The position numbers were made by a program, and so were the translations under genes. A DNA stretch of 46,855 bases from Candidatus Margulisiibacteriota bacterium (GTDB lineage: Bacteria > Margulisbacteria > WOR-1 > O2-12-FULL-45-9 > XYB2-FULL-48-7): the NCBI GenBank assembly GCA_041665245.1, contig JBAYJF010000001.1:1-46855 (forward strand), read 5' to 3'. This document shows, piece after piece, positions 4,462 to 40,045 of the stretch. Each line of letters starts with the position of its first letter. Positions within the stretch are counted from its first letter, which is position 1. The notes beneath the pieces were generated by a model. That model was not told the origin of the DNA. It saw nothing but the letters and a program-made list of their open reading frames with translations, and searched no databases.

Positions 4462-5556
4462 CTATTCGCCGTATACTTTTGCCTTTAATATAAGAACATT
4501 TTGCCTCGGGAAAAACTTTCGCACAGTCCACCTCTCCCCCCTGGAAAAAACCACCGTTTTCGAAAAAAAGTCATATTCTCTCCAAAACATAAAATCGGTA
4601 TCCCCAAATATCCTTACTAAGGCAAGTCTAACCGCCTCTTCCTCATTAACGTTCCCTATTGCGTAATAACTTCTGCTACTTGAATAATCATATTGCTTAT
4701 ATACATTCATCCCTTTTGCTAATCCAAGGTTAATAAGCTCAAGCCTTAGCGCCGTTTCTTTGTCTCCCGGAAATACTTCTGAATTGATAGAGACTATTCC
4801 TTTTTGCTCTTGATTGTTTTGTGCGTCTCGAATAAACATGCGCGTAATGAAACGTGATGCAAGGGTCAAAAGAATTCCTCCTCCGACAATTCCTAACAAA
4901 GGAGCAACAGTAGTTATCACAGCCGTTGCCCACAAGCACGCTGGCACAGCCACAGTACTTACCAACGATAAAAGCATAAAACCTGCTCCAAATTTATGCC
5001 CAAAGCTAAGTTTAAATGGCGGGATTTCTAATTTTGATTTTTCTGGAGCAACAACTGAGCTTTTTGGTGCGACGGCTGCAGCCAGTTCCGCTGGGACGAC
5101 TCTGCCTGCGCTTGCTGTTTGCGGACTTTTTGCGCTTCGTACTGGTTCGCCCTTTTGCTCACCTTTACCAAATTTACCTTCTTTCTTTTTTGCTTTAACT
5201 CCAAAATTCCCTTCTAGCTTAACCTTCCCCGCCAATGCCGGCCTTGCCGCAATGGCCGCCGCAAGATCTTCGCTTGTAAGGACGATCCCAACTAAAGCAC
5301 TTATCAATTCTCTGGCCGCTAAATCATCTGCCGGTCTGGAATCCCCTTCAATTCTAATTTGAGTGATCCCGATATTATGTAAAATTCCCAACCGTACACC
5401 TTTTTTCTCTTCCACTCCTTTGCTGCAATCTACTGTTCCCCGAAAACCGGCTAAGCCGCGCCCGATCCTATCCTGCGCCTGCAAAACCTGTTTTTTCCCT
5501 AAGTCGGCATTCCTTCTTATCCCTCTTGTTGTTACCGTTATCTGCACTCCAGCCAT
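4462..5556 (-). CDS. hypothetical membrane protein (orphan) with a central bilobed hydrophobic domain
   Basis: The 364-aa ORF has a strong SD (AAGGAGGA) 6 nt before the ATG. Residues about 189-237 form two adjacent hydrophobic helices (FGAGFMLLSLVSTVAVPACLWA / VAPLLGIVGGGILLTLASRFI). A Lys/Gly-rich linker spans residues about 111-145. I recognise no family motif. Confidence 0.6.
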   Translation of the reverse strand: MAGVQITVTTRGIRRNADLGKKQVLQAQDRIGRGLAGFRGTVDCSKGVEEKKGVRLGILHNIGITQIRIEGDSRPADDLAARELISALVGIVLTSEDLAAAIAARPALAGKVKLEGNFGVKAKKKEGKFGKGEQKGEPVRSAKSPQTASAGRVVPAELAAAVAPKSSVVAPEKSKLEIPPFKLSFGHKFGAGFMLLSLVSTVAVPACLWATAVITTVAPLLGIVGGGILLTLASRFITRMFIRDAQNNQEQKGIVSINSEVFPGDKETALRLELINLGLAKGMNVYKQYDYSSSRSYYAIGNVNEEEAVRLALVRIFGDTDFMFWREYDFFSKTVVFSRGERWTVRKFFPRQNVLILKAKVYGE

Positions 5557-5579
5557 TTCAAATCCTCCTTAATTAACAA

Positions 5580-5604
5580 AAACCCAGATTATTCATCTGG
5601 GTTT
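5580..5604 (-). terminator. terminator-like hairpin between the 887-aa and 364-aa ORFs, inside the predicted leader of the 364-aa ORF
   Basis: The minus strand reads AAACCCAGAT-GAATA-ATCTGGGTTT followed by TTG. That gives a 10-bp stem, a 5-nt loop and a U-tract. Confidence 0.55.
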
Positions 5605-5622
5605 AAACTAACCTCATAGCTT

Positions 5623-5652
5623 TTTATCTGTACATCCTAGGATAAATTTCAC
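5623..5652 (-). promoter_or_regulatory. GTGAAATT-N16-GATAAA promoter-like motif (sigma-28-like geometry) upstream of the 364-aa ORF
   Basis: On the minus strand, GTGAAATT occupies 5652-5645 and overlaps the TGA stop of the 887-aa ORF. After a 16-nt spacer, GATAAA occupies 5628-5623. The same architecture occurs at four other sites. Confidence 0.55.
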
Positions 5653-8312
5653 CCTTTCGGCCGCAGGGAATACCCTTCAGCGAGCAACTCCGCAACGGAA
5701 ATAAAGTCCGGCCGACGATAGGTTTCTTCCACATCAAATATTTCCACCCGTTGCGTAAAATCTCCCGCCCGCATTAATGTTTCATATCTTCCACGAACCC
5801 CCTTCTTGGTCGAACGCAATAACGCTTCCGGGTCGCGATATTTCCCTTTCGCTAGTGCGGCGCTTACTTCATCAACCAAAACTGTTCCTTCTCTGCCGAC
5901 AGAAAGAAGATCGTGCTGAGAATTTCTAAAATGAACCGGCAAAACATGTTCGCTCCCATCAGAAAAAGTTGTAATTATATAAATTCCATAACGAATAGAT
6001 AGTTCGCGCTGGTCACCCAGCATTGTTTTTTGGATCTGCGCTTTATTCGAGTGGTGACAGCCTGCTAACATTCGGCTCCCATCACCCATTAAAATCGGCT
6101 TAACCGGCAATCTGCAAAGCCTTCCTCTATATTGCCTTGCAGCAAATATTTCTTCTCGGGCGATCCCGCTTATTGATCTTTCTCTTTCCGTTATGTTTCC
6201 GGGCAGCTCCAGCGGGCCAAAATATCCCTTTTCCAGCCTAAAAAGCGGCAACCCCAAGATCCCCTTTGTTCGCAGAACATGGTCAAAACCTCTTACGAAA
6301 AGCTCAGCTGCAGTAAGGCCGGGCTTCCCGGTCTCTATTGGGCTTAATAATTCCGTACCACCATCTTGAGGCATAATAAGATAACCGGAATATCTTTGTG
6401 TTACTACTTTTGTACACAGGTACCGAGCTAATACGCCGGCAGTTAATTCAACCAACGCCTCCTCAAAAACACCTAGCGCTAATTCGTCCTCTCGAATCCC
6501 TTTTGTATCGATAATTTTTACGGCTGCTTTGTCTAGATCCACTAATAAATGGATCTCTTTTCCCGTAAACGTACCTTCCTCTGCCAGAGAGGCCGCAACT
6601 TCAAAAGTTTGGCTCTTTAAATGCCGAACAGTTATTGATCGGAGCGATCCGCGTAAAAAATCCCCACCGGCAAGCTGATATTTCACTGTGGTTTCAGCTA
6701 ACATGGAAGGAGCAAATAATAGATCGACCGTTTCCATAGACTTATGACGACGCTCCGAAATTTGATCGGCCACCGCCATTAAACCCTCTTCCGCACCCCG
6801 AACTAAATTCAAAAAGTAGCGAATGAATTCGACATTTAAATTTTCAACTTCGCGCCTTGCAAGCTCCAAAGCAAATTGATCGACCTGTTTATCAACTTCG
6901 CCCAATACTACTGCAGGCGATTTAACGGCTAACCCGCCTACCTTTCCGGCCAATCCAAAAGCAAGAGCCGATAATCCGCACAAAAGAAAATATCTTGATA
7001 ATAATATTTTATTTCCCTCAAATTTAGGAGGGTAAAGCTGCAGGTGTTTTATCGGCAACTCATAAAGCAGATACCCGTCTGCCCTTTTAATCGCGACTAA
7101 CATTGAAGCCGTATTTGGCCGACTGAAAATATTTACACGACCAGCCTCTGCCGAATGCTTGGCACTAAATTCAGCTGCATGCAAAAAACAGGCCGAACCG
7201 CTCAACCCCGCCTTTAGAAATACCCGATTGAGGGCTTCCACCGATTCTTTTATCTGTCGATCAAGAATAAGGGCTATCCGGGGGGCATCATCGGCAGACA
7301 ACCGCAAAACCGGCCCGCATTCGGTCAAGGAGGCCAAAGACAACCCGCTTTCATAAAACCGGCAAATTGCATCAAGAAAGGAAATGCGCAAAATTTCTAT
7401 TTCGGTATCAATTACTGTCGGCGCGCTCGCCGTTCTTTTATTTCCATTTCCCTCCAAGTGAGGCGCGACACCCTCTAAAACACCCTTTGCCGCATTTCTA
7501 TCCCCTTTCGCCGATAATTGCTCAAATTCTCGATAACTCCTTTGCATTGACAGCAGCCTTGCTGCTTTTTCATCAAGGGCAGCTCCCAAAATAAATCTAT
7601 CCAGAAGATCTAAAAATTCAAAGTGCGCCAGGCCGACAATTTTTGTATGAAAACATTCCTGGTCATCAGCAAAATTCCCTTTGTTTTCAACGACCAATTC
7701 TGCACACACCCTCATTTTTCCACGATCAAAAGTTGCCCCTCTCATTCTTTCATTTGCTCTGCCGCGAAACAGGACCTCTTCGGCAACTAAGCGCCTGCAC
7801 TCTAGATCAATGGACGTCAAACAAGCAATATCGCTGCCTAAGTCTATTAGCCTATTTGGAAAAGTTTTAAGCAGGCGGCTGCCAATAACAAAAACGCCGA
7901 TAAAATATCTCAAATCTCTATTGCCGGCAGGAGGAAAAGGTTTTACCTTTATAAACTCCTCATACCGACTCCTTATGGCTCTTCCGGTTTCCGGGCTAGC
8001 ATGCAAGGTTCTCTGAAGAGCATTTGCGGCATTTTGAAAATTATCGCTATCTGGCGCATCTCTTTCAATAACATACATGTAATGGTCCGCCGCAAAAGCG
8101 TGATTAGATTTCTTACGTGCAAGATCTGCCAAGGCAACATAACAACTATAAATTTCAGACGGCGCAACTTGCCCGGATCTTTCGATCTGCACAAGCAAAT
8201 TCTTAGCAACATGTAGATTTCCCGCGCGATGTGCTGTAGAAAAATCCGTCATTGTTGGCATTTTTTGTTGCCGAACCTCTCTTTTTCCCCACCGTACTCC
8301 ACTTGGTTTCAT
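5649..8312 (-). CDS. large hypothetical protein (orphan, 887 aa)
   Basis: This is a long uninterrupted ORF on the strand opposite the flanking leuC and leuD. I see no catalytic or nucleotide-binding motif. The composition looks richer in Ala/Arg/Leu/Gly than the neighbouring genes. The start is uncertain: the ATG at 8312 has no SD, and alternative ATGs lie at 8261 and 8252. Confidence 0.6.
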   Translation of the reverse strand: MKPSGVRWGKREVRQQKMPTMTDFSTAHRAGNLHVAKNLLVQIERSGQVAPSEIYSCYVALADLARKKSNHAFAADHYMYVIERDAPDSDNFQNAANALQRTLHASPETGRAIRSRYEEFIKVKPFPPAGNRDLRYFIGVFVIGSRLLKTFPNRLIDLGSDIACLTSIDLECRRLVAEEVLFRGRANERMRGATFDRGKMRVCAELVVENKGNFADDQECFHTKIVGLAHFEFLDLLDRFILGAALDEKAARLLSMQRSYREFEQLSAKGDRNAAKGVLEGVAPHLEGNGNKRTASAPTVIDTEIEILRISFLDAICRFYESGLSLASLTECGPVLRLSADDAPRIALILDRQIKESVEALNRVFLKAGLSGSACFLHAAEFSAKHSAEAGRVNIFSRPNTASMLVAIKRADGYLLYELPIKHLQLYPPKFEGNKILLSRYFLLCGLSALAFGLAGKVGGLAVKSPAVVLGEVDKQVDQFALELARREVENLNVEFIRYFLNLVRGAEEGLMAVADQISERRHKSMETVDLLFAPSMLAETTVKYQLAGGDFLRGSLRSITVRHLKSQTFEVAASLAEEGTFTGKEIHLLVDLDKAAVKIIDTKGIREDELALGVFEEALVELTAGVLARYLCTKVVTQRYSGYLIMPQDGGTELLSPIETGKPGLTAAELFVRGFDHVLRTKGILGLPLFRLEKGYFGPLELPGNITERERSISGIAREEIFAARQYRGRLCRLPVKPILMGDGSRMLAGCHHSNKAQIQKTMLGDQRELSIRYGIYIITTFSDGSEHVLPVHFRNSQHDLLSVGREGTVLVDEVSAALAKGKYRDPEALLRSTKKGVRGRYETLMRAGDFTQRVEIFDVEETYRRPDFISVAELLAEGYSLRPKG

Positions 8313-8317
8313 ATCCT

Positions 8318-8350
8318 AATATCATCGTCAATAGATCGGATTAATTTCAC
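8318..8350 (-). promoter_or_regulatory. GTGAAATT-N16-GATGAT(ATT) promoter-like motif upstream of the 887-aa ORF
   Basis: On the minus strand, GTGAAATT occupies 8350-8343. GATGAT follows at 8326-8321 (16-nt spacing), with an alternative GATATT at 8323-8318. Only 5-8 nt remain before the ATG at 8312, so the gene may be leaderless. Confidence 0.45.
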
Positions 8351-8366
8351 AGAATATGGCAAATCA

Positions 8367-8374
8367 TGTATAAT
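8367..8374 (+). promoter_or_regulatory. -10 box TGTATAAT placed 7 nt upstream of the leuD ATG (leaderless-type arrangement)
   Basis: TATAAT lies at 8369-8374 and the ATG at 8382. There is no SD between them. Confidence 0.45.
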
Positions 8375-8381
8375 AAATATC

Positions 8382-8885
8382 ATGAACCTAAACGGAAAAG
8401 CACGCCGGCTGCCTCAAAATGATGATATAAATACCGATTACGTCATCTCGGGACGCTATAAGTTCAAGATCCAGGACCCGGTTGAACTGGCGACCCATGT
8501 CATGGAAGACCTGGATCCCGGCTTTTTCAAAAGAGTTGAAAAAGGGGATTTTATGGTCGTTGGCCGCAATTTTGGCTGTGGATCATCGCGCGAACAAGCC
8601 CCGATGGCGATCAAATATGCCAATATTTCCGCGATCCTGGCCAAATCTTTTGCCCGCATCTTTTATCGCAATTGTTTCAACCTAGGGCTCTTAGCGATCG
8701 AATGCGACACTGACGGGATTGACGAAGGCGACCAGCTCGAAGTTGACCTGGACGGCGGCAAGATCATAAATAAAACAAAAAAGACGGAGATCAAGGTAGC
8801 GCCGCTTCCCAAAACTATGCAAACCCTTTTGGCCGACGGGGGGCTGATCGAACATTTCAAAAAGCATCATGGATTCAAAGTTTAG
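8382..8885 (+). CDS. leuD: 3-isopropylmalate dehydratase small subunit
   Basis: The protein from Met52 of the ORF track (MNLNGKARRL...) is 167 aa. It carries the small-subunit motif GRNFGCGSSREQAP. The 51 upstream codons of the ORF overlap the opposite-strand 887-aa gene and are not credible. Confidence 0.85.
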   Translation: MNLNGKARRLPQNDDINTDYVISGRYKFKIQDPVELATHVMEDLDPGFFKRVEKGDFMVVGRNFGCGSSREQAPMAIKYANISAILAKSFARIFYRNCFNLGLLAIECDTDGIDEGDQLEVDLDGGKIINKTKKTEIKVAPLPKTMQTLLADGGLIEHFKKHHGFKV

Positions 8886-9627
8886 CATCCGCGGTTTCAT
8901 TGAGACCTCTTTCCTCGACTGGGACGGAAAAATAACCTCGGTCATCTTTCTCCCCAACTGCAACCTAAACTGTTCCTATTGCAGCAATAGCGTTCTGGTC
9001 AATTATCCTGAAACCCTGCGAGAAATCGATTTTGAGCATATTAAAAGCTTCATTGTTGAGAGAAAAGATTTTATCGATGGGATCGTAATAACAGGAGGAG
9101 AGCCGACCATCCAACCGTGGCTTATCGACTTAATAAAAGAAATAAAAGCGCTCGGTTTTCTGATCAAACTCGATACAAACGGCATTAACCCCAAAGTCCT
9201 CTCCCAGCTCCTAAGCCCTGCCTGCCGGCAGGCAGGTCCGAACTCCGAACTCCCAACTCCCAACTCCCGACTTGTTGATTATATAGCTATGGATGTTAAA
9301 GCCCCGCTAAATGAAAAATACAAAGAAGTCTGCGGAACAGATGTAGACCTGAATGCCATACGGGAAAGCATTAAACTGCTGATAAATTCCGGGATCGAAC
9401 ATGAATTCAGGACAACCGTTGTTGCGGGCAGCCTGGATAATGAAGATATTAAAGAGATCGCAAAAAGCATTGTCGGAGCAAAAAAGTTTGCGCTCCAGCA
9501 ATTTGTTCCCCGGATCGCCGGGGATGAAAAGTTAAGAGAAACCATCCCCCACTCAAAAGAGAAACTGCAAGAAATGGCTAAAATCGCCAAGGAATATATC
9601 CCTAACACCATTGTGCGGGGGATCTGA
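8869..9627 (+). CDS. radical SAM activating enzyme (anaerobic ribonucleotide reductase activase-like)
   Basis: The N-terminal SFLDWDGKITSVIFLPNCNLNCSYCSN contains the CxxxCxxC cluster motif. GGEPT is also present. The ORF overlaps the leuD end by 17 nt. It carries an in-frame palindrome plus heptamer insertion at 9217-9270. Confidence 0.75.
   Translation: MDSKFSIRGFIETSFLDWDGKITSVIFLPNCNLNCSYCSNSVLVNYPETLREIDFEHIKSFIVERKDFIDGIVITGGEPTIQPWLIDLIKEIKALGFLIKLDTNGINPKVLSQLLSPACRQAGPNSELPTPNSRLVDYIAMDVKAPLNEKYKEVCGTDVDLNAIRESIKLLINSGIEHEFRTTVVAGSLDNEDIKEIAKSIVGAKKFALQQFVPRIAGDEKLRETIPHSKEKLQEMAKIAKEYIPNTIVRGI
9217..9236. repeat. copy 1 of the perfect 20-bp palindrome CCTGCCTGCCGGCAGGCAGG, inside a CDS
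   Basis: Exact 20-mer, identical to the copies at 25064-25083 and 29527-29546. Here it is translated in frame as PACRQAG. Confidence 0.9.
9238..9270. repeat. heptamer stutter block (CCGAACT x2, CCCAACT x2, CCCGA) abutting the palindrome
   Basis: Read directly from the sequence. It is translated in frame as PNSELPTPNSR within the radical SAM ORF. Confidence 0.8.
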
Positions 9628-9674
9628 CGCGGCCCTCACCCGGTTTATCATTAAAGTATACTTGACGTTAGCTG

Positions 9675-9750
9675 CCCTCTCCCAGGGGGAGAGGGAATGT
9701 TTGGTTAATTGTTTGTAACACGATACAACCCTTCTCCCTCTGGGAGAAGG
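9675..9750. repeat. two REP-like GC-rich hairpins in the 183-bp spacer
   Basis: Hairpin 1 is CCCTCTCCC-agg-GGGAGAGGG (9675-9695). Hairpin 2 is CCTTCTCCC-tct-GGGAGAAGG (9730-9750). Both have 9-bp stems and the two sequences are related. Confidence 0.7.
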
Positions 9751-9804: not shown

Positions 9805-9810
9805 TACCTC

Positions 9811-25061: not shown

Positions 25062-25085
25062 AACCTGCCTGCCGGCAGGCAGGTT
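25062..25085. repeat. copy 2 of the palindrome (24 bp here: AA-CCTGCCTGCCGGCAGGCAGG-TT), upstream of tRNA-Glu
   Basis: The exact 20-mer lies at 25064-25083. It is flanked by AAATGACAA-like stutter words, which also occur at 1-9 and 15-23. Confidence 0.9.
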
Positions 25086-29463: not shown

Positions 29464-29487
29464 GTTATTTTCATTATATAGGATTAA

Positions 29488-29517
29488 GTGAAATTTTCAT
29501 AATTTGAAACTGATATT
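29488..29517 (+). promoter_or_regulatory. GTGAAATT-N16-GATATT promoter-like motif upstream of the 523-aa ORF
   Basis: GTGAAATT lies at 29488-29495 and GATATT at 29512-29517. A structured leader of about 85 nt follows. Confidence 0.55.
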
Positions 29518-29526: not shown

Positions 29527-29546
29527 CCTGCCTGCCGGCAGGCAGG
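29527..29546. repeat. copy 3 of the 20-bp palindrome, in the leader of the 523-aa ORF
   Basis: Exact 20-mer CCTGCCTGCCGGCAGGCAGG. Confidence 0.9.
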
Positions 29547-29565
29547 CAAGGGCTCGTCCCTTGCC
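29545..29565 (+). other. second GC-rich leader hairpin GGCAAGGG-ctcgt-CCCTTGCC followed by a T-rich tract
   Basis: It has an 8-bp stem and a 5-nt loop. GGCTTATTTC lies downstream. It shares two bases with the palindrome. Confidence 0.6.
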
Positions 29566-29603: not shown

Positions 29604-31175
29604 ATGAGCAGCATTTCAGGAACGGCCCCGGTTATCAGAAAAGTTACCATCAGAGGAACAGACCAGATCGGCGCAAGAAGGAGAATGACCGATCAGGCCG
29701 CAAAAGAATATTTAGGAAGCAAAAGATACGGGGTATTAAAGACCGATGTTGCCAGAGTAATTCGGGGAACAGACAGCTGGAAAGCTTTTTTTATAAATCC
29801 TCTCGATGAAGTGCTTTTCCCTAAAGAAAACATCGACTCACTAATAAGTGTAGCCGGCTTAGATGTTCAGACTGAATCCGCCTTTAGGGCGTTGATCAAA
29901 CAAGATCATCCTGGAGCAATAGTAGAAACGACTGATGGACGACTTGTTGCTCTTCGTTTGGATGATTTTGAAGGGGTTGCGCTAACCCCGACCATTGACC
30001 CCACAAGCAACATGCAAACTTTTGTTTCAGGCCCCGTGCTAGAAAGAGCTGAAAGAAGGCTATCAGAAATCATTGGGACAGAGGAAACAAATCCAGGCAG
30101 GGTCACCGTTGCACATAACGCTTTGCCAAATTGGGATACAATTAGATTTGCGTTAACCCCAACAGATTCCATGGTAATAACTCAGGCAGCAGCCGGTGAG
30201 CCCTGGCCCGCATTTAAAGTGGTTCCTTTTCAACATTTAAAAATATCCCTTTCAGCTTCGGCTTTGAATTATGGGCAGCAACTATTTGAGGGAATGAAGG
30301 CTCAGAGGACCAAGGATGGAAGGGTTGTTCTCTTTAGGCCGCTTGATAACGCCAGAAGAATGAAAGGCGGCGCGGAAAGGATCCTCTTAAATCCTGTTCC
30401 GGAAGAATATTTCCTTGCAGCCGTAACCGCCGCCGTCCGAGCAAATGAACGCTGGATCCCGCCATATGGCAAGGGAGCGCTATACATAAGACCGGTCCTA
30501 ATTGGTGATGGGGGAGTTGTTGGTATAAATCCTGGGCCGCAAGATACCTTTGGTATTCTTTGTACTCCGGTTGGGCCATATTTCCAGGGAGGAATGAAAG
30601 CCATTTCATTGCTTGTTCCGGAAGATTATCATCGCTCTGCCCCTGGGAATCTGGGTTATATTAAGGCCGGCGGGAACTATACCGCAGGAATGATGCTTGC
30701 CCGGGATGCGCATGCCGCGGGTTTTGCCGAAATTCTATATCTTGATGCGATTAAGAATTTGTATCCTGATGAGGTTGGGGCCGCGAATTTCATCCTTGTT
30801 TATAAACACAAAAACGGGGATCGCACTATTTTTACCCCGCCTCTTGAGAATGGAACCATTTTACCGGGGGTCACAAGAAGAAGTTGGATCCAAATAGCAA
30901 GAGACGCCGGGATCGAGGTTATTGAAAAGATCCCCACCATTAACAGAATTATGAAGGACGAAAGATTTGTTGAAGCCGGCTGCTCGGGAACGGCGGCGGT
31001 TATCTCCCCTATTGGTAAAATCCAATATAAAGGCGCAACAAGAGAATTTGGAGATGGATTAACTCCGGGCTCTGTCATGCGAATGCTTCATGGTAGATTA
31101 ACAGCGATTCAATTGCTGGAAGCTCCAGATATCTATGGCTGGGTACATGAAGTCAATATGCGATCCATAGCTTAG
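29604..31175 (+). CDS. branched-chain amino acid aminotransferase (fold-type IV) fused to an unknown ~175-aa N-terminal region
   Basis: From about residue 180 the protein is collinear with long-form BCATs (FALTPTDSMV, LNYGQQLFEGMKA, LFRP..N..R, YIRP, and the PLP lysine context GYIKAGGNYTAG). Residues 1-175 have no motif I recognise. An AAGGGG SD is present. Confidence 0.75.
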   Translation: MSSISGTAPVIRKVTIRGTDQIGARRRMTDQAAKEYLGSKRYGVLKTDVARVIRGTDSWKAFFINPLDEVLFPKENIDSLISVAGLDVQTESAFRALIKQDHPGAIVETTDGRLVALRLDDFEGVALTPTIDPTSNMQTFVSGPVLERAERRLSEIIGTEETNPGRVTVAHNALPNWDTIRFALTPTDSMVITQAAAGEPWPAFKVVPFQHLKISLSASALNYGQQLFEGMKAQRTKDGRVVLFRPLDNARRMKGGAERILLNPVPEEYFLAAVTAAVRANERWIPPYGKGALYIRPVLIGDGGVVGINPGPQDTFGILCTPVGPYFQGGMKAISLLVPEDYHRSAPGNLGYIKAGGNYTAGMMLARDAHAAGFAEILYLDAIKNLYPDEVGAANFILVYKHKNGDRTIFTPPLENGTILPGVTRRSWIQIARDAGIEVIEKIPTINRIMKDERFVEAGCSGTAAVISPIGKIQYKGATREFGDGLTPGSVMRMLHGRLTAIQLLEAPDIYGWVHEVNMRSIA

Positions 31176-31193
31176 CTATTTTTATTGCTTTGT

Positions 31194-31227
31194 AAAAAGG
31201 CCCGGGGGACGTTCTTCGGGCCTTTTT
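31194..31227 (+). terminator. rho-independent terminator after the 523-aa ORF
   Basis: The sequence is AAAAAGGCCCG-(12 nt)-CGGGCCTTTTT. The T-tract abuts the next GTGAAATT box. Confidence 0.7.
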
Positions 31228-31228
31228 A

Positions 31229-31258
31229 GTGAAATTTTTCATTTTACCTTCCGATAAC
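31229..31258 (+). promoter_or_regulatory. GTGAAATT-N16-(CC)GATAAC promoter-like motif, 7 nt upstream of the ATG of the 722-aa ORF (leaderless arrangement)
   Basis: GTGAAATT lies at 31229-31236, CCGATAAC at 31251-31258 and the ATG at 31266. There is no SD. Confidence 0.6.
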
Positions 31259-31265
31259 TATTCGT

Positions 31266-33434
31266 ATGAATAGAACAAGCCCAGCGCCTGCAACAGGGCG
31301 ACCACAAAGACCAAGAAGAACGGCCCCAACTGTTCAATATCAGCTTATTTGTCACAACCTCCCCTTGTCACCAAGACAGGCCGGCCGTGTTATCGAGGCC
31401 CTAACACAAACTGGGCGCAATGGTGGGCTGGAAAGTCTGCGCGCAACGGAAATTGTAGCTTTTAAAGCCGCCGGAGGGAACGACGCCGACCTGCAAGTTC
31501 CAGGCGAATGCCGAGGAAAACTCCTTAATCTACTTGAAGGACAGGAAAGAGCAGTATATATATCATTTTTGCTCCGTTTTGCGGCCGCGCATATGGTCGC
31601 CGAACAATATAGCGACGCAAGAGACACTTATGGCGCAATATTAATACCCTGCCGAGACAACGTTCCCGCCAAAATTGGGCAAAAAGCCGCTATAATTGCA
31701 AAATCGCTTTTACCGGCTGCAAAGCCGATCTTGGCTCTCTTTTCCGCATATACCGAAACCCTCGCCTCGCCAGAAGGCCTGGACTGGAAAGAGGCGGCTT
31801 TCAATGCAGCAATATCCGCAATCGTAGAATCATCCGCAAACCCTCAAATAGACGGGGAAACTTTATTTATAAAACTGGCCCCTCTTTTCAATTTTCCTGA
31901 ATCGGCTCCGGCAGAAGTAAATTCGGCTGCCGATTTCTATTGCAAAGCCGTCAGCTTAACTCTTCGCGGATTGCTGGATGCAAGCGTTCCGGCAACCGCA
32001 ATCGTTCACGCCTTCGGAAGACCAATTATCGAAGAACTTGAAATGGCGCTGGCATCAGACGGCAATGAACACGTTTTATTTCCGCTCCGCCTATCTCTTA
32101 TGATCGCGGTTCTTCTTCATGAAAAGAGCCTTCCTTTCGATAAAATTGAAGAAGCCATTCGTCCTTTTGGCGAACCGGTTGTTCAGGCTGCATTGGAATC
32201 CGAGATATTTTTTCTTGCCGGCGCAAAAATACGCACAGGGATCGAGATGGCGCCTCCACGAATTGAAGTTGTCCCCCTCCCGCTCGATGCCGCAGAAGCC
32301 GCAGTTGGCCTTGTTTTAGATCTCGCCGCCGGAACAAGGGATATCAAAGAAAATCCCCGTACAACAGCACAAGAATTTTATGCTCTTTACCTACAAGCAG
32401 AAGAAGTCCATAAGGAAGAAATTGGCGCAACACTAGCAGAAACGGCGGTTACATGTGCAAACGAACAGCCCGAAAAAATAAAAGAACTCATCTTATTCTT
32501 AAACACTCTTTTAGATAAACATGACGAAAAATTAACCCCTCATTTAAATAGAGGGACGATCGCCATGCTCTTGTCTCCGTCCATAAAAAGAAAGCTTGTT
32601 GCTTCTGCATCTGAACTATGGCAAAAGGTTAAAATCGCGGGAGAAAAAGCCGGGCAGGAACTGCTCGCGCTACCACCTTCCATCCCTAAATCAGCGTCAA
32701 AGGGAATTCGCACGCAAAAGAGCACCGCCCCGCAAATCCCTATCGCCGAAGAATATTTAGCCTTAGAAGGAATTTCTGCTGATGACATCCTTTTTATTGA
32801 TTTTTTCTTCACCCGCTTCGCTACTTTTCCGATCGTCCAGGCAATGTTTGGGGAAATAGAGGCAACTATTTTTTGTGATCCATATTCTACAACCGACCGC
32901 TTTTATGCAACGATCCTCCATACATCAAAAGGGAGCGAAAAAGCGCTCCGCCAATTTGCAACGCTGCTAAAAAAAACCGACGGGCTTCCATACACAAGAA
33001 TTGAAGCAACGCTCAAACTAGCTGACAATAAATTGGTTGATCTGGCCTTTCAAGTCGCCCCTCCGTTGGCACCCATCATCACGCAAACCAACATTACTTT
33101 ATTTAGGATCCAATCTTTTTATGCCTGGGCTCACATTTTATCCAAAAGAATAGAAGCCTATATCCAAAAACCTCACGACTATAAGGCCACGGCACATTCA
33201 TTGATCTGCACTTTTAGTTTCTGCGCGGCAAAAGTTCCGATGCTGGCGGACAATATCCCAAAGAATCACCCTTTCTCATATTATGCCGGCCATGTAAAAG
33301 ATTTTGTGCTAACGCAAACATTACCCCGCTACGGAGAATTGATCAGAGGGGGAAACAGCGCCGTAAAAGCAGCAGTCGCTGCCGCAAAGGAGACCTTGTC
33401 GGCAGGCAAGGGTTTCACTCTCTATAAAGAATAA
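31266..33434 (+). CDS. large hypothetical protein (orphan, 722 aa), predicted mostly alpha-helical
   Basis: This is a long ORF with a Pro/Arg/Thr-rich N-terminus (MNRTSPAPATGRPQRPRRTAPT) and an Ala/Leu-rich body. I recognise no enzymatic motif. Confidence 0.6.
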   Translation: MNRTSPAPATGRPQRPRRTAPTVQYQLICHNLPLSPRQAGRVIEALTQTGRNGGLESLRATEIVAFKAAGGNDADLQVPGECRGKLLNLLEGQERAVYISFLLRFAAAHMVAEQYSDARDTYGAILIPCRDNVPAKIGQKAAIIAKSLLPAAKPILALFSAYTETLASPEGLDWKEAAFNAAISAIVESSANPQIDGETLFIKLAPLFNFPESAPAEVNSAADFYCKAVSLTLRGLLDASVPATAIVHAFGRPIIEELEMALASDGNEHVLFPLRLSLMIAVLLHEKSLPFDKIEEAIRPFGEPVVQAALESEIFFLAGAKIRTGIEMAPPRIEVVPLPLDAAEAAVGLVLDLAAGTRDIKENPRTTAQEFYALYLQAEEVHKEEIGATLAETAVTCANEQPEKIKELILFLNTLLDKHDEKLTPHLNRGTIAMLLSPSIKRKLVASASELWQKVKIAGEKAGQELLALPPSIPKSASKGIRTQKSTAPQIPIAEEYLALEGISADDILFIDFFFTRFATFPIVQAMFGEIEATIFCDPYSTTDRFYATILHTSKGSEKALRQFATLLKKTDGLPYTRIEATLKLADNKLVDLAFQVAPPLAPIITQTNITLFRIQSFYAWAHILSKRIEAYIQKPHDYKATAHSLICTFSFCAAKVPMLADNIPKNHPFSYYAGHVKDFVLTQTLPRYGELIRGGNSAVKAAVAAAKETLSAGKGFTLYKE

Positions 33435-34290: not shown

Positions 34291-35087
34291 TTCAACACAA
34301 ATATTATCACGTAATAATACATGAGCGGAGCCGTCAAAATAAACGAATCGATCCGATCAAGAATGCCGCCATGCCCAGGAATTAAATTTGAAGAATCCTT
34401 TGCCCCCGCATCCCTCTTTATCAAGGATTCGATCAGGTCAGAGATCTGGCCGAACACCCCGATCAAACAGCCTAAAACCAGCGCATGATAAATCTCAAGC
34501 TCGGCTGTACGGCTAAAAATTGCCGCCGCGATAAGACAAACAACAAAACCTGCGACCGCACCTTCCCACGTTTTCTTTGGAGAGATGGAAGGGAAAAATA
34601 GTGTTTTGCCAAAATATTTTCCGAATAAAAAAGCCACAATATCCATCGCCCAAACCGTAAATAGAAGAAAGAAAAGGTAGCCCCCATGCTCGGTTAAACT
34701 TCGAATAAAGATCAGGTAGCTGCAAAACCAACCGACATAAATGATCCCAAGAAGCGTTACCGCGATATCGACAATGGTATCTTTTTCTCTTTTAAGAAAA
34801 ATTCCTGCTATAAGAGCGCCTGTTGCCGCAAGTGTTAATATCGCGGAATGGGCCGGCTCCCAATCCCTTTTCAAAGCATAAGAAGCAAAAATAATTAGAA
34901 AAGCGGTAATAATATTCCCGACATAATAGGCAGGGAAAAGACCTTTCTTCATCATTAAATTATAAAACTCATTTACCGCAAAGAGCGCCAGGAATAAGAT
35001 CAGAAAAAGAAAGGGCATTCCGCCAAAATAGACGCATAAGAGGATGATCGGAACACCGACAAGCATCGAAAAGCCGCGTGCGAGCAT
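34287..35087 (-). CDS. cdsA: phosphatidate cytidylyltransferase
   Basis: This is a multi-pass membrane protein with the C-terminal CTP-transferase signature SLIKRDAGAKDSSNLIPGHGGILDRIDS. Confidence 0.88.
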   Translation of the reverse strand: MLARGFSMLVGVPIILLCVYFGGMPFLFLILFLALFAVNEFYNLMMKKGLFPAYYVGNIITAFLIIFASYALKRDWEPAHSAILTLAATGALIAGIFLKREKDTIVDIAVTLLGIIYVGWFCSYLIFIRSLTEHGGYLFFLLFTVWAMDIVAFLFGKYFGKTLFFPSISPKKTWEGAVAGFVVCLIAAAIFSRTAELEIYHALVLGCLIGVFGQISDLIESLIKRDAGAKDSSNLIPGHGGILDRIDSFILTAPLMYYYVIIFVLK

Positions 35088-35090
35088 AAT

Positions 35091-35792
35091 TTATCCTTTT
35101 ACTTTACCGAACCGCCGCTCCCTTTTTTGGTACGCTTCAACGGCTTCGATCAATTGCTTCTTCCTAAAATCCGGCCAAAGGGTCTGTGTAATATAAATTT
35201 CCGCATATGCGATCTGCCACAACAAAAAGTTCGAGACCCGCATCTCGTTAGCGGTCCTGATCAGCAGGTCTGGATCGGGCAAGTCTCTTGTATATAAATA
35301 TTTATTAACCGTTTCTTCATTAATTCGCTCATTCGGCAATTCGTCATTCGTCATTTCTTTGAACGCATCAACGATCTCGGCCCGTCCGCCATAATTAACC
35401 AAGACGCTTAAAGTAATTTTCTTGTTTTCTGCTGTCAGCTCCATTGCGGCATTCATTTTTTTACGCAGATCGGCCGGGAACTTATTTAAGCGGCCCAGGA
35501 ACTGCAGCTTAACGCCGCTTTTGTTTAATTCTTCCAGCTCGCGCTCGATCATCCGAGAAAAAAGGCCCATCAGAAAAGAGACCTCCCCTTTCGGCCTCGC
35601 CCAGTTCTCCGTGGAAAACGCATAAACAGTGAGGTATTTTACGCCCAATTCGGCACAAGTTTTGAGGACAACGCGAACAGATTCGGCGCCTTCTTTATGG
35701 CCGGCTATACGCGGAAGAAATCTTTTTTTTGCCCAACGGCCATTCCCATCCATTATTACTGCAATATGTTGAGGAATATTATTATTAATCAT
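35091..35792 (-). CDS. uppS: undecaprenyl pyrophosphate synthase
   Basis: The motifs HIAVIMDGNGRWA, YAFSTENW.RP, and RTANEMRVSNFLLWQ.AY.E are present. Confidence 0.9.
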   Translation of the reverse strand: MINNNIPQHIAVIMDGNGRWAKKRFLPRIAGHKEGAESVRVVLKTCAELGVKYLTVYAFSTENWARPKGEVSFLMGLFSRMIERELEELNKSGVKLQFLGRLNKFPADLRKKMNAAMELTAENKKITLSVLVNYGGRAEIVDAFKEMTNDELPNERINEETVNKYLYTRDLPDPDLLIRTANEMRVSNFLLWQIAYAEIYITQTLWPDFRKKQLIEAVEAYQKRERRFGKVKG

Positions 35793-35920
35793 TATATATA
35801 AATACTAAACTCTAAATTCTAAATACTAAACAATATAAAATTACCAAATCCTAAATATTTAGACTTTAGTATTTTGAATTTGTTTAGAATTTAGAGTTTC
35901 GGATTTAGAGTTTATCACAC
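35793..35920. repeat. 128-bp AT-rich composite inverted repeat filling the uppS-frr spacer
   Basis: The left arm AAACTCTAAATTCTAAA(TACT)AAACAA pairs with the right arm TTGTTTAGAATTTAGAGTTT. The central palindrome is CTAAATATTTAG. The element is built from CTAAA/TTTAG words. Confidence 0.7.
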
Positions 35921-36472
35921 CTAGACTTCCAGGATTTCTTTTTCTTTGGATAAAATGAGCTTGTCCGCATCAGCGCAGTATTTATCGGTTAATTCCTGCA
36001 TCTTCTTGTCTTTTGTTTTCTCTTCGTCTTCGGTGATCGTTTTTTCCTGTTTCTGTTTTTTCAGGAGGTCGATCGCCTCCCGCCTGGCATTGCGGATCGA
36101 AACTTTTGCGTCTTCTGCTTCTTTTTTTATCCCTTTTACAAGATCTTTGCGCCGCTCTTCCGATAATTCTGGAAGAAGAAGCCGGATCACGCCCCCTTCA
36201 TTTTTTGGGGTCATCCCCAGGTTAGACGCATTGATCGCTTTTTCTATGCTTTGGCTTGCGCTTTTGTCAAAAGGGGTGATCAGCAGCTGGCGAGCCTCCG
36301 GAGTAGAAACCTGCGCGATCTGCTTAAGGGGTACGGTCGATCCATAATATTCTACATGGACCTGATCAAGCAATGCGGGACTTGCCCTTCCGGTCCTGAC
36401 CGAGGCCAGGTGCTTACGCAAAGCATCGATTGCTTTTTGCATCTTTATCTCGGTATCTTTTATAACGTCCAT
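35921..36472 (-). CDS. frr: ribosome recycling factor
   Basis: The 183-aa ORF has typical RRF sequence (GRASPALLD.V.VEYYG...L.Q.A.......L.I.P.D). It sits in the conserved pyrH-frr-uppS-cdsA order. Confidence 0.9.
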   Translation of the reverse strand: MDVIKDTEIKMQKAIDALRKHLASVRTGRASPALLDQVHVEYYGSTVPLKQIAQVSTPEARQLLITPFDKSASQSIEKAINASNLGMTPKNEGGVIRLLLPELSEERRKDLVKGIKKEAEDAKVSIRNARREAIDLLKKQKQEKTITEDEEKTKDKKMQELTDKYCADADKLILSKEKEILEV

Positions 36473-36481
36473 GTTTTCCTC

Positions 36482-37204
36482 CTACTCTTCAACTTTTACC
36501 AGGGTCCCGACATCTTTGCCTTGGACCGCTTTTTTTACGTTGCCGCTTTTTGTCAGATCAAGGACAATGATCGGGATCTTATTTTCCATACATAAGGACG
36601 CGGCAGTCGTATCAAGGACCCGCAGTCTTTTTTGGATCATTTCCATATGGGTAATGACCTTAAATCTTTTCGCGTTCGGATTTTTTACCGGATCCGTATC
36701 ATATACTCCGTCAACTTTTGTCGCCTTGATGATCACATCGACATCCAGTTCGGCGGCCCGCAGGGCCGCGGTCGTATCGGTTGAAAAGTATGGGTTCCCT
36801 GTCCCTGCGGCAAGAATGATCACCCGCCCCTTTTCCATATGGCGAATTGCGCGTCTCCGGATAAAGGGCTCCGCGATCGCTTTCATTTCAATTGCAGTTT
36901 GTACTCTGGAAGGAACCCCGGCTTTTTCAAGGGCATCTTGCAGCGCCAAAGAGTTCATCACTGTTGCCAGCATTCCCATATAATCGGCGGTCGCTCGATC
37001 GATCCCGCTTATCGCGCCGGCAACTCCGCGGAAAATATTTCCACCCCCGACAACGATCGCAACATCCGCCCCAAGTTTTTTTACCGATTTAATTTCGCGG
37101 GCAACAACCCCAAGCACATTAAGGTCTATGCCGTATTTTTGCTGGCCGCCAAATACTTCACCCGACAATTTTAAGAGGATTCGTTTATATGTAGGCCTTC
37201 CCAT
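36482..37204 (-). CDS. pyrH: uridylate kinase
   Basis: The motifs [21 protein letters not shown] and [15 protein letters not shown] are present. Confidence 0.9.
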
Positions 37205-37212
37205 GTTGGATT

Positions 37213-37276
37213 AAATTATAACATATCTTTCGGGATTGGGGATTCGGGAATTTGGGATTCAATTATGTTATAATTT
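37213..37276. promoter_or_regulatory. symmetric divergent promoter module: a 12-bp perfect inverted repeat places a TGTTATAAT box in each direction, flanking a heptamer stutter
   Basis: The arms are AAATTATAACAT (37213-37224) and ATGTTATAATTT (37265-37276). On the minus strand TATAAT is 10 nt from the pyrH ATG (37204). On the plus strand TATAAT (37269-37274) is 9 nt from the ATG at 37284. CGGGATT-like units occupy 37231-37260. Confidence 0.55.
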
Positions 37277-37283
37277 CTCCACT

Positions 37284-38327
37284 ATGGCAATGTTATTCCC
37301 ATATCTTGAGTTGGCCGCTTCTTTATTTATCCTGCTCCTTGCCTTTGAGATAATGACCGTCCATTTTGACAATAAATTGGAAAAATTCTTTGCCTTTTAT
37401 GCTCTGGTAGCCTTCTTTGCTGCGATCCTTACCTACTCCTACCGGATCGCTTTTACACTTGAGATCGCCAGAGACATTAATCGAATTAGCGCCTGCCTGC
37501 TCGCTTTTACTTTTGCTCTTTTTTCCCAGTTCGCGGTCTATTTCACTAAAAACGAATCGCTCCTAAACAATCGGATAAAGCTGGCTCTTTTTTATCTCCC
37601 GCCCGCAATAATCTCCTGCTTATTTTTATTTACAGATTCCATGTACTTGCGCTATGAAATTCAAAACATCGGGATCGTCAGCACCCCTGCTCCCCTTTAT
37701 TTGTTGTTTGCGCTTGAAACCGCCTTTTATTGCGGTCTTGGGATCGTCTTGCTTCTTAAATATTCAAACGTAACAAAAAAGAATCTGGAACGGCAGCAGG
37801 CGCTGATCATTGCGATCGGCTCGCTAATTCCCCTTTCGATCGGGATCCTGCTCGATCAGTTGATCCCCGTATTTTTTGGGATCAGGCTTACGCCGCCCAC
37901 GGTAGTTTTTGATATCGCTTTCATGAATTTATTTATTTATCTGGCGATGCGCAACTACAGCCTGTTTTCCCTCTCTCCCGCAAAAGCCGCACAAACCATT
38001 ATCGAAACCATGCCCAATTCGCTTATCGTTACCGATCTTGACGGATGTATATTGTTTATTAACGACGAAGCAAGAAGTCTTTTTCATGACGCAAAACATG
38101 CGGTTGAATGCAAACCGATAAGCGCTTTATTTAAAGATAAAAAGAAATTTGATCAGCTCTATAAAGAAGTGGTCGAAAGAAAGGAAGTTGTAGAGCGCTT
38201 CGAAGCCGAGCTAATAGACCCTCTGGGAGAAAAGATCCCCGCCTTGATAAACGCCAAGATCGTCCGCCAAAAAAACTTCGGCGAGCTGATTGGGATCGTT
38301 TTTATTATTCGGGACGTTAGGGGATAA
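37284..38327 (+). CDS. membrane protein with a multi-pass N-terminal domain and a C-terminal PAS-like domain, with no output domain
   Basis: I place the start at MAMLFPYLELAAS. About 7 hydrophobic helices are followed by a PAS-like segment (IIETMPNSLIVTDLDGCILFINDEA...GIVFIIRDV). The ORF ends right after the PAS segment. Confidence 0.55.
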   Translation: MAMLFPYLELAASLFILLLAFEIMTVHFDNKLEKFFAFYALVAFFAAILTYSYRIAFTLEIARDINRISACLLAFTFALFSQFAVYFTKNESLLNNRIKLALFYLPPAIISCLFLFTDSMYLRYEIQNIGIVSTPAPLYLLFALETAFYCGLGIVLLLKYSNVTKKNLERQQALIIAIGSLIPLSIGILLDQLIPVFFGIRLTPPTVVFDIAFMNLFIYLAMRNYSLFSLSPAKAAQTIIETMPNSLIVTDLDGCILFINDEARSLFHDAKHAVECKPISALFKDKKKFDQLYKEVVERKEVVERFEAELIDPLGEKIPALINAKIVRQKNFGELIGIVFIIRDVRG

Positions 38328-38333
38328 GGCCCT

Positions 38334-39947
38334 TTACCCCATCAACTTTTCATAAATCTGCGCCATATACTGCTGGGCAACTCTTTGGGGAGTATATTCG
38401 TTTTGCGCCCGCTCCATTGCAGCCATTCTCATTCCCATAAAGAGCTGGGGTTCTGTCTTTAATTTTCTCGCCAATGCGACCAATCCATTCCAAAAGATAT
38501 TATTTTCTTCAATGGCTCTTGCAGGGTCGCCATTCAAAACGCTCCCAAATGCCATCCCATAATTATGGGCGGTTAGATTTCGGGTCCCCAAGACAGTCTC
38601 CCACTCTTTTTCTTGCGCTGCCCAATATTGAGCGCTGCCAAGAATATCCCGGAGGCCGCCAACTTCATTTGCCAGAAGCAGAGGCCCTTGCGCCTGCAGC
38701 GTCATAGCAAATAGCCCGCAAGGTTCAAACATTGACGGCATTAGCCCGATCTGGGCCCACTTTAAGCCGTCTTCAAACCTTTCTTGAGAAAACGGATAAT
38801 ATGATAAGGGCATTTTTCTATCCTTGCCAAGCGCCTCAAGCCGTTCTTGCGTTTTTTTGTCACCATCTGCAATGACCCGTATATCAAGCAACTGTTGCTC
38901 GCCTAAGGCGGACAAGACCCCCTGAATCGCTGGAAGCCCGTTCAATAAGTAATCGTATCCCTTTTGGGGATCAAGCCGGTTCGCCATTAAAACCCTGACC
39001 GGGCCAGACGGGCCTTCAATTGATTTTGCTACCTTGGAAGGAAGCAAGCCGTTTAATATCCCGATCACATCTCTGCGGCCTAAAATATCTCCATAACTTC
39101 GGACCGGGCCGTACGAAAAGCCGGTGCTCCCTATCTCTCTCGCATAAGTGGGCGAAACAGTAGTTAGTTTTTTGGACGCGATCATTGCCAGCGCTAACAG
39201 GTCGGCCGTTCCTCCCCGTGTCGCCCTATCAGGCAAGCTCAACTGGAGCGAAGCTAATACGCTCGCGTCGGCGATCGTAGTATAGGCAGGGTTGTGGATC
39301 GTAAAGGCCGTTGGGATCCCGGCACCATTCACCAAAAATGTCGCTAAACCGGTCAAATGATCATTCCCATGGAAAATGATCCTCTCTCCGGCATTTGCGG
39401 CGGCATTTAATTTTTGTGCAATTTGTGCCAAAGCCAGATTAAAAACCAGCATTGCTTCGGTCATCTTCCCGCCCTTGTATATCCCTCCCTCGCATTCCCC
39501 CTCCGGCGCAGTTAATTTAGTACTTATTTCGGAGGTTCTATTGCCGTAAACATCAAAGGCAAAATAATGGGGTTCAGACACTTTTCTTATGCTTATCGTT
39601 GGGAGGCCTAATTCATCTCTTGCCGCTATGGCAACCAACTTTACCTCCACATCTTTTCCCGGCACTTTTATGCTAAGCTCCATATCGCCGGCATCGCTCC
39701 TGGAATTGTCGTATTCATAACTGGCTCCGGAATATGGATTGACACTTACCGCACTGACCCCTTCTTTCGTTAAGCCAAGGTGAAGAGCCCCGATAGCTTG
39801 CCCAAATCCCCACCGATGCGGCGGAATATCATTTCTATATCTTCTTCCTTCCGTCGGTGTAGGCTCGTGCCCCGCCAATAAAACGACCGGCCTTCTTACA
39901 TTCCCTTTTCTGTGCGCAAAAACCGCGTCTACTACTCGATTTACCAT
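38334..39947 (-). CDS. divergent glycogen/starch-synthase-like glycosyltransferase (GT5-like, GT-B fold)
   Basis: GlgA-like collinear motifs are present: HGNDHLTGL (compare H.HDW..G), FTIHNPAY, TVSPTYAREI and EPCGLFAMTLQAQGP....EVGGLRD. The canonical N-terminal KTGGL loop is replaced and interrupted (HEPTPTEGRRYRNDIPPHRWGFGQAIGAL). A strong SD (TAGGAGGA) is present. Confidence 0.7.
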   Translation of the reverse strand: MVNRVVDAVFAHRKGNVRRPVVLLAGHEPTPTEGRRYRNDIPPHRWGFGQAIGALHLGLTKEGVSAVSVNPYSGASYEYDNSRSDAGDMELSIKVPGKDVEVKLVAIAARDELGLPTISIRKVSEPHYFAFDVYGNRTSEISTKLTAPEGECEGGIYKGGKMTEAMLVFNLALAQIAQKLNAAANAGERIIFHGNDHLTGLATFLVNGAGIPTAFTIHNPAYTTIADASVLASLQLSLPDRATRGGTADLLALAMIASKKLTTVSPTYAREIGSTGFSYGPVRSYGDILGRRDVIGILNGLLPSKVAKSIEGPSGPVRVLMANRLDPQKGYDYLLNGLPAIQGVLSALGEQQLLDIRVIADGDKKTQERLEALGKDRKMPLSYYPFSQERFEDGLKWAQIGLMPSMFEPCGLFAMTLQAQGPLLLANEVGGLRDILGSAQYWAAQEKEWETVLGTRNLTAHNYGMAFGSVLNGDPARAIEENNIFWNGLVALARKLKTEPQLFMGMRMAAMERAQNEYTPQRVAQQYMAQIYEKLMG

Positions 39948-39967
39948 TAAATTATCCTCCTAAAATA

Positions 39968-39991
39968 AAAACCCGAAATTCTCCGGGTTTT
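39968..39991 (-). other. terminator-like leader hairpin upstream of the GT5-like ORF
   Basis: The minus strand reads AAAACCCG-gagaattt-CGGGTTTT followed by T. It lies between the promoter-like motif and the SD. No minus-strand gene lies upstream for it to terminate. Confidence 0.55.
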
Positions 39992-40015
39992 AAAAACCTC
40001 ATTAACTTACACTTT

Positions 40016-40045
40016 CTTATCGGGCCGGCTTTTTCATAATTTCAC
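40016..40045 (-). promoter_or_regulatory. GTGAAATT-N16-(CCC)GATAAG promoter-like motif upstream of the GT5-like ORF
   Basis: On the minus strand, GTGAAATT occupies 40045-40038 and CCGATAAG occupies 40023-40016. Confidence 0.6.

Follow-up and report, generated by a model that had tools for sequence, protein, structure and literature searches.

Sigma factors of the sigma-28 class have non-flagellar uses, among them the late genes of Chlamydia (hctB) and WhiG in Streptomyces. Margulisbacteria and Saganbacteria are uncultivated sister lineages of Cyanobacteria, and to our knowledge nothing is known of how they control transcription. The searchable literature yielded no earlier description of Margulisbacteria promoters or of the motif reported below. 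The consensus of sigma-28 promoters is TAAAGTTT-n11-GCCGATAA (PMC2859248), also given as TAAA-N15-GCCGAWAA-N4-start (PMC2532724). Among extracytoplasmic function (ECF, group 4) sigma factors, which are usually autoregulated, the B. subtilis sigma-W/V type uses a tGAAACnTTTt -35 element and a CGTA or CGAC -10 element (PMC5758882). Here we analyse a 46,855-nt stretch of a Candidatus Margulisiibacteriota genome (contig JBAYJF010000001.1, positions 1 to 46,855; hereafter the window), in which a bipartite element, GTGAAATT followed after exactly 16 nt by a GAT box, stands before five genes. We propose that these sites are, very probably, promoters for an alternative sigma factor.

Results

A bipartite element precedes five genes in the window

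We observed six copies of GTGAAATT in the window, at the coordinates and on the strands listed in an earlier note on this DNA (Table 1). The computed expectation is 2.9, so the note's chance estimate of once or twice was slightly low. Because 8 of 100 shuffles reached six or more copies, the count of the 8-mer by itself is without significance. The bipartite pattern GTGAAATT-N16-GAT is significant: it occurs five times, with the identical 16-nt gap that the note described, where 0.06 are expected, and none of 100 shuffles reached five. The sixth copy lies within lpxD and, as had been noted, lacks a GAT box.

The 33 intergenic segments amount to 2119 nt, or 4.5% of the window, and hold five of the six GTGAAATT copies (binomial estimate, ~1e-6). 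Each of the five sites is oriented toward the next start codon. When all 8-mers were counted over the 33 intergenic segments, with no prior choice, AATTTCAC was joint top. The motif was not cherry-picked, because AATTTCAC ties for first place in this unbiased count.

The element is kept at orthologous loci

We read the window's own contig beyond the window (ENA ERZ27249449 k141_712397, 59,198 bp) and relatives as locus pieces of up to ~22 kb, and collected 27 sites from 10 genomes. In each of the four distinct relatives (L082, L085, L087 and L088) the ilvE orthologue has the motif upstream, as do all five other members of the orf887 family examined (L085, L173, L175, L176 and L177). The glgA-like orthologue in L179 (Saganbacteria, 59.5% GC) is preceded by GTGAAATT-N16-cGATAAG, with the box as in the window. 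Between nadC and ilvE in L082, the position of orf722 in the window, lies a gene for a TPR protein of 507 amino acids (aa), likewise with the motif.

Two further sites (L092 13643 and L090 20380) lie on the window's contig outside the window. A Ser/Thr kinase gene follows one of them, CTGAAATT-N16-cGATAAT. The second, GTGAAATC-N16-cGATATA, stands before two open reading frames (ORFs) of 67 and 72 aa next to NAD kinase, and this ORF pair has the motif upstream both here (L090) and in L177. Other sites stand before genes for TPR proteins of 507 aa (the L082 gene) and 1026 aa and before orphans whose lengths are 248, 326/346 and 497 aa. Another leads an operon in which a 228-aa methyltransferase-like ORF is joined by an 879-aa orphan. 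The list of targets also holds a RelA/SpoT-like HD_4 protein, a Ser/Thr kinase, a nagB-like gene and a sugar transferase.

The motif is thus kept in nine other genomes, which strengthens the earlier claim of a dispersed regulon separate from the housekeeping promoter type. We regard this cross-genome conservation as the decisive evidence for the motif and, judged by the loci read, both Margulisbacteria and Saganbacteria keep the element. In ~200 kb it stands before no ribosomal or other core gene. Sites occur about once per 8-12 kb, which implies a regulon of well above a hundred promoters.

Only the 16-nt spacer is enriched

The motif consensus is sTGAAATT-N16-(C)GATA. On the -35 side of the 27-site matrix, T, G, A, A, A and T are invariant. 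The box columns read C in 13 sites, C in 20, G in 27, A in 27, T in 22 and A in 26, followed by A/T and then by A in 17; the last hexamer position, equivalent to the -7 T of a primary promoter, carries T at 6 of the 27 sites. Base frequencies in the spacer columns are close to background, and the alignment holds no conserved 8-mer partner. The spacer is 16 nt at 27 of 27 sites, with one extra 15-nt candidate in L179.

TGAAATT-N16-GAWA occurred 22 times in 187 kb of lineage DNA (117/Mb) against 12 occurrences in a 2.27-Mb control (5/Mb) that included unrelated Clostridia-type glgA loci and marine ilvE metagenome loci. Lineage counts at spacers of 14, 15, 17 and 18 nt were at background (0, 1, 1 and 2); only 16 nt was enriched. 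A position weight matrix built from the first 11 sites had no match anywhere in the 2.27-Mb control. When TGAAATT was searched with one mismatch allowed, only three further plausible sites came up, all variant at base 7. Most of the related sites were found by patterns that demanded TGAAAT. A CodY-like or palindromic operator in the T-rich spacer was considered and rejected, being inconsistent across sites.

The GATA box is positioned like a -10 element

In the window, the start codons of housekeeping genes are preceded at 6-10 nt by (TGn)TATAAT, without a Shine-Dalgarno sequence and with no clear -35 (Table 1). This distance suggests that housekeeping mRNAs are largely leaderless, and much of the genome appears to be expressed from leaderless mRNAs. 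The GATA box lies 8 nt before the ATG of orf887 and 7 nt before that of orf722 in the window, 8 and 5 nt before the 248-aa orphan and the 507-aa TPR gene of L082, and 7 nt before the ATG in L176. At these five sites the ATG follows the hexamer by 5-8 nt and is never nearer. Since this is the ATG distance of TATAAT, the box would occupy the place of the -10 element. Its composition indicates that it is not a sigma-A -10: C-G-A-T-A is conserved, T stands at the -7 equivalent at just 6 of the 27 sites, and spacer length does not vary. The primary-sigma combination of TATAAT, with A at -11, T at -7 and a flexible 16-18-nt spacer, is not what the motif displays.

These features bear on two explanations that involve the primary sigma factor. 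If GTGAAATT were a transcription-factor site at -35, the primary sigma could read a weak GATAAT-like -10 behind it. The invariant heptamer is more operator-like than a typical -35, some boxes (GATAAT or GATATT) are one mismatch from TATAAT, and at sites 1 and 3 the element overlaps a divergent gene's sigma-A promoter. However, the heptamer shows neither dyad symmetry nor a repeated half-site, the 16-nt spacer has zero tolerance, and the conserved C-G-A-T-A box carries the essential -7 T equivalent at so few sites. The genome's sigma-A promoters also differ (TGnTATAAT, no clear -35), and we consider the operator very unlikely.

The sites could instead be a -35-dependent subclass of primary-sigma promoters, with nTGAAA as a variant of TTGACA, an 18-nt spacer and a GATAnn -10. 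This is highly improbable in our assessment. It gains from the identity of nTGAAA to TTGACA at 4 of 6 positions and from the ATGAAA-16-TATAAT that a consensus scan places at the ychF promoter, but the TT following TGAAA is invariant too, the spacer does not vary, the -10 lacks the -7 T and has a conserved C ahead of GA, and the motif serves none of the ribosomal or core genes in ~200 kb.

Sites 1 and 3 overlap the divergent sigma-A promoters of leuD and ychF (8343-8374 and 29473-29500). Back-to-back divergent pairs in relatives lie 8-31 nt apart (L082 9923/9940, L177 9950/9958 and L173 3616/3647). Because alternative and sigma-A promoters overlap or diverge in this way, two holoenzymes could compete for the same DNA.

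A sigma-28-like architecture

The earlier note aligned GAAA of the motif with TAAA of the sigma-28 consensus and obtained, for sites 4 and 5, an interval of N15 before nCCGATAA, which is correct. With GAAATTtt aligned to TAAAGTTT, the interval is exactly N11 and the -10 reads nCCGATAa; this holds at 27 of 27 sites. The motif thus has sigma-28 spacing throughout (TAAA-N15-GCCGATAA, or octamer-N11-octamer), and over the 27 sites its -10 agrees with GCCGATAA and the core CGA. These data suggest that the five sites are promoters read by a single alternative sigma-70-family factor whose promoter architecture is closest to that of sigma-28, a reading we consider probable. Whether the cognate factor itself falls in the FliA/WhiG clade is an even bet.

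Several observations weigh against the sites being promoters of a sigma-28-like factor. In the -35, AAA and TT(T) match sigma-28 TAAA(GTTT), but an invariant G replaces T1, T replaces G5, and an additional invariant T precedes the G. At the E. coli aer promoter, T1-to-C lowers sigma-28 activity ~tenfold (PMC2859248). Because changing T1 cripples that promoter, the factor here would need a changed -35 specificity; a sigma-28 of the E. coli type would be unlikely to recognise this -35, whereas a factor with an altered region 4.2 could. Part of the -35 invariance arises because the search patterns required TGAAAT. No flagellar or chemotaxis domain occurs in any of the 27 downstream genes, so the classical late flagellar, motility and chemotaxis targets are missing from the set, and no sigma factor, flgM or flagellar gene was found in the 59-kb contig or in the related pieces (up to ~22 kb) read. 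Finally, hairpins lie between the box and the ribosome-binding site (RBS) at orf364, ilvE and the glgA-like gene, which is odd for a simple promoter.

Since non-flagellar regulons are known for the sigma-28 class, the missing flagellar targets do not exclude it. Margulisbacteria are listed among the clades having FlgV, which is reported to be co-conserved with flagella and sigma-28; on this report a FliA-type gene in the lineage is plausible. The earlier assignment to the sigma-28 class is upheld by the -10 and the spacing geometry at all 27 sites; the -35 departs from that class at two invariant positions.

The same elements can be read as ECF promoters. TGAAAT-N16-CGA resembles the B. subtilis sigma-W/V type, and the T-rich stretch past the -35, the strict spacing and the very stringent -35 are ECF-like. 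The ECF hallmark AAC (PMC5758882), however, is AAT at 27 of 27 sites, and in place of the ECF -10 CGT the motif has CGA(T/A)A, to which the autoregulatory CGAC of sigma-X alone is similar. Within the limited sequence covered, no site of the 27 has a sigma/anti-sigma operon behind it, and downstream genes with recorded domains include no sigma-factor Pfam domain. A regulon of more than 100 promoters is, in our judgement, large for an ECF factor. Taken together, an ECF factor is unlikely, and we retain the sigma-28-like reading.

Genes downstream of the element

The 523-aa ORF matched NF009897 over aa 170-517 (E = 1.5e-102). Its N-terminal extension, aa 1-170 (29604-30110), is conserved in Margulisbacteria with the motif RLDDF..L.PSLHP..QTFV.GPVLERAE; Pfam gives no match to it, and AlphaFold confidence there is only moderate. 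The copy in the window has an additional ~70-aa insert. The closest IlvE proteins with the same extension are annotated Candidatus Margulisbacteria, and their loci are syntenic with the window; a metagenome scan with the IlvE alignment recovered mostly marine ilvE lacking it. A genome-collection scan for the glgA-like gene returned only distant (~27% identical) Clostridia-type glgA loci.

Searches of Pfam, NCBIfam, PADLOC and PHROGs gave no family match for orf887, orf364 or orf722. A mobile, defence or phage origin was tried and rejected, as PADLOC (all five genes) and PHROGs (four, not ilvE) gave no such family. For orf887, a word-indexed homology search recovered the query alone; exhaustive searching of 1.84 billion proteins with HMMER brought up 28 representatives, most of them 840-900 aa long. 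Its profile and AlphaFold model (predicted local distance difference test, pLDDT, 80.5) point to a TPR superhelix at the N-terminus. Foldseek of this model against the PDB gave TPR matches to the N-terminal third only, none of them significant (best E = 0.037). No homologues of orf722, orf364 or the glgA-like protein were found by tblastn/blastp in the first set of related loci. The two hydrophobic segments of orf364 are separated by a short loop and flanked by low-complexity, Lys/Ala/Pro-rich sequence; this putative bilobed membrane hairpin may resemble the type in chlamydial Inc proteins. The earlier description of five orphans therefore fits orf364 and orf722, which have no match, but not ilvE and the glgA-like gene, which encode enzymes, or orf887, which belongs to the family of 28 representatives.

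GC content at third codon positions (GC3) was 0.375-0.414 in four of the five motif genes (4462-8312 and 29604-33434) compared to 0.50 ± 0.037 in the other 37 genes (P = 2e-4, Mann-Whitney), a shift toward A/T-ending codons. ilvE is the lowest-GC3 gene also in L082, L085 and L087. A foreign origin by whole-gene GC was rejected, as there was no difference (0.465 vs 0.460).

On the opposite strand, orf887 and orf364 split leuC (3124-4377) from leuD (8382-8885), normally an adjacent pair. The remaining genes of the window are housekeeping genes: pyrC, rnc, leuC/leuD, nrdG, miaA, hisD, uvrC, uvrD, S6-SSB-L9, prfC, ychF, frr, pyrH, uppS, cdsA, nadC, mnmG, ompH and lpxD.

Leader hairpins and repeats

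The three leader hairpins fold with z-scores of -3.6 (5604-5580), -3.3 (29545-29565) and -1.75 (39991-39968), and may serve as attenuators or 5' stabilisers or represent short RNAs. Orthologous leaders lack conserved counterparts. Rfam covariance models run over the whole window matched tRNA-Glu only, with no riboswitch or leader family at the sites. A leader RNA common to sites 2 and 5 (ATGAGGTT plus hairpin) was rejected, as orthologues do not conserve it.

An explanation built on these hairpins would make the three long-leader sites short RNA genes or attenuators, each a promoter, ~50 nt and a terminator. We find this barely credible. The hairpins do look like canonical terminators, with T runs 20-50 nt past the box, but besides their lack of conservation and of an Rfam family, a copy of a dispersed palindrome adjoins the ilvE hairpin, and sites 1 and 4 and several sites of relatives leave no room for an RNA element.

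That palindrome, the perfect 20-nt CCTGCCTGCCGGCAGGCAGG, occurs three times in the window: at 9217-9236 inside the nrdG ORF, at 25064-25083 upstream of tRNA-Glu and at 29527-29546 in the ilvE leader. It resembles a dispersed element of the repetitive extragenic palindromic (REP) kind. Between frr and uppS, 35798-35915 is an AT-rich imperfect palindrome of 118 nt with 64-nt arms that are 78% complementary.

Table 1. Coordinates of the bipartite sites, the genes behind them and other features of the window
Feature	Coordinates	Strand	Remarks
Site 1, -35-like GTGAAATT	8343..8350	-	Overlaps, on the opposite strand, the sigma-A-type -35 of leuD (TTCACA, 8346-8351)
Site 1, -10-like box cGATGAT	8321..8326	-	8 nt before ATG at 8312, a leaderless geometry
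Site 2, -35-like GTGAAATT	5645..5652	-	TGA of the element is the orf887 stop codon
Site 2, -10-like box aGATAAA	5623..5628	-	Upstream of orf364
Site 3, -35-like GTGAAATT	29488..29495	+	Overlaps -35/spacer of the divergent ychF promoter
Site 3, -10-like box tGATATT	29512..29517	+	Upstream of ilvE
Site 4, -35-like GTGAAATT	31229..31236	+	Upstream of orf722
Site 4, -10-like box cCGATAAC	31253..31258	+	7 nt before ATG at 31266, a leaderless geometry
Site 5, -35-like GTGAAATT	40038..40045	-	Upstream of the glgA-like gene
Site 5, -10-like box cCGATAAG	40016..40021	-	Identical box at the Saganbacteria orthologue
Background GTGAAATT, sixth copy	42466..42473	+	Within lpxD, no GAT box; not a site
orf887	5649..8312	-	Small Margulisbacteria family; predicted N-terminal TPR superhelix, then domains without PDB match
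orf364	4462..5556	-	No family match; two adjacent hydrophobic segments, ~aa 190-245
ilvE (523 aa), branched-chain aminotransferase	29604..31175	+	N-terminal extension conserved in the lineage
orf722	31266..33434	+	No family match; Ala/Leu-rich, helical-looking from sequence
glgA-like gene (537 aa)	38334..39947	-	Divergent GT5, glycogen/starch-synthase-like, by family search
Terminator-like hairpin and T run	5580..5604	-	Between site 2 and the orf364 RBS; may also terminate orf887
ilvE leader	29527..29565	+	Palindrome CCTGCCTGCCGGCAGGCAGG 29527-29546, then terminator-like hairpin 29545-29565 (2-nt overlap)
Hairpin and T run	31199..31227	+	Read from sequence as the ilvE terminator; directly 3' of ilvE, ends 1 nt before site 4
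Terminator-like hairpin and T run	39968..39991	-	Leader of the glgA-like gene
ychF promoter ATGAAA-16-TATAAT	29500-29473	-	Consensus scan
TATAAT of leuD	8369-8374		Before start codon
TATAAT of ychF	29473-29478		Before start codon
TATAAT of Zn-peptidase gene	9811		Upstream of gene
TATAAT of mgtC	28363		Upstream of gene
TATAAT of pyrH	37204		Upstream of gene
TATAAT of aminotransferase gene	~45934		Upstream of gene

Discussion

The simplest reading of the sites is that one alternative factor contacts both elements. sTGAAATT(t) would be the -35 element and (C)CGATA(a/t), exactly 16 nt downstream, the -10 element, with transcription starting a few bases past the box. The mRNAs of orf887 and orf722 would then be leaderless or nearly so, and those of orf364, ilvE and the glgA-like gene would carry leaders of ~60-80 nt. 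What the sequences show is the motif itself, its departure from chance, its strict spacing and placement, its retention at orthologues and its contrast with the housekeeping promoters; reading by a sigma factor, the identity of that factor and the start point are inferred. The targets would comprise ilvE, the glgA-like enzyme, members of the orf887 TPR family and small ORFs; relatives would add further TPR or orphan proteins and the RelA/SpoT-like, Ser/Thr kinase, nagB-like and sugar transferase genes. That the products are secreted or late-stage factors, as the earlier note suggested by analogy with Campylobacter and Chlamydia, is speculation.

A more far-reaching scenario, quite unlikely on our estimate, is a sigma-28-derived factor with changed -35 specificity that has become uncoupled from flagella and runs a phylum-wide, state-specific programme in Margulisbacteria and Saganbacteria. 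Its members would be fast-evolving TPR and orphan proteins together with enzymes that have lineage-specific N-terminal extensions (IlvE, possibly GlgA), and they would have a codon usage of their own (low GC3). The products might be exported or serve a resting or host-associated stage, as do, for comparison, Chlamydia late genes and secreted GlgA.

The motif offers a sequence handle on a second promoter class in Margulisbacteria and Saganbacteria, and a simple motif scan allows regulon prediction in any genome of the lineage. Through it, dozens of proteins without a known function can be grouped as a candidate co-regulated set, the orf887 TPR family and the extended IlvE among them. Pairing the promoters with a candidate sigma factor would open the study of -35 specificity change in the sigma-28 branch. 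Heavy use of leaderless mRNAs in the lineage would matter for gene calling and for promoter-prediction tools, which give incomplete promoter lists for this phylum (bioRxiv 10.64898/2026.09.23.753901).

In kind, the proposed promoter is one for an alternative factor of the sigma-70 family: its -10 and its spacing are sigma-28-like, and its -35 is distinct. It introduces no new principle. What sets it apart is that the motif is tied to a large non-flagellar regulon of mostly uncharacterised proteins in a lineage of candidate-phylum level. Cyanobacterial group 3 SigF promoters (TAGGC at -32, GGTAA at -12) are also a stringent non-primary class, from the wider cyanobacterial surroundings of these lineages in the tree, and bear no sequence resemblance to the motif. 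ECF promoters (sigma-W/V tGAAACnTTTt...CGTA; sigma-X CGAC) share with it a short stringent -35, a T tract, a fixed spacer and a -10 starting with CG, but they have AAC where the motif has AAT and CGT where it has CGATA, and no autoregulated operon is found among the sites.

Sigma-28 promoters are likewise bipartite, with octamer-sized elements, identical spacing, an essentially identical -10 core, CCGATA(A/T), and AAA and TT(T) in the -35; the leaderless ATG distance fits a start ~4-5 nt past the -10 octamer. They differ from the motif in the first and fifth -35 positions and in lacking its extra T, and here no flagellar or chemotaxis target occurs among 27 and the regulon is apparently much larger. 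In Chlamydia (hctB) and Streptomyces (WhiG), sigma-28-class factors serve stage-specific non-flagellar genes, and the targets of the motif, lineage-specific proteins and a glycogen-synthase-like enzyme, would by analogy only be a counterpart to these.

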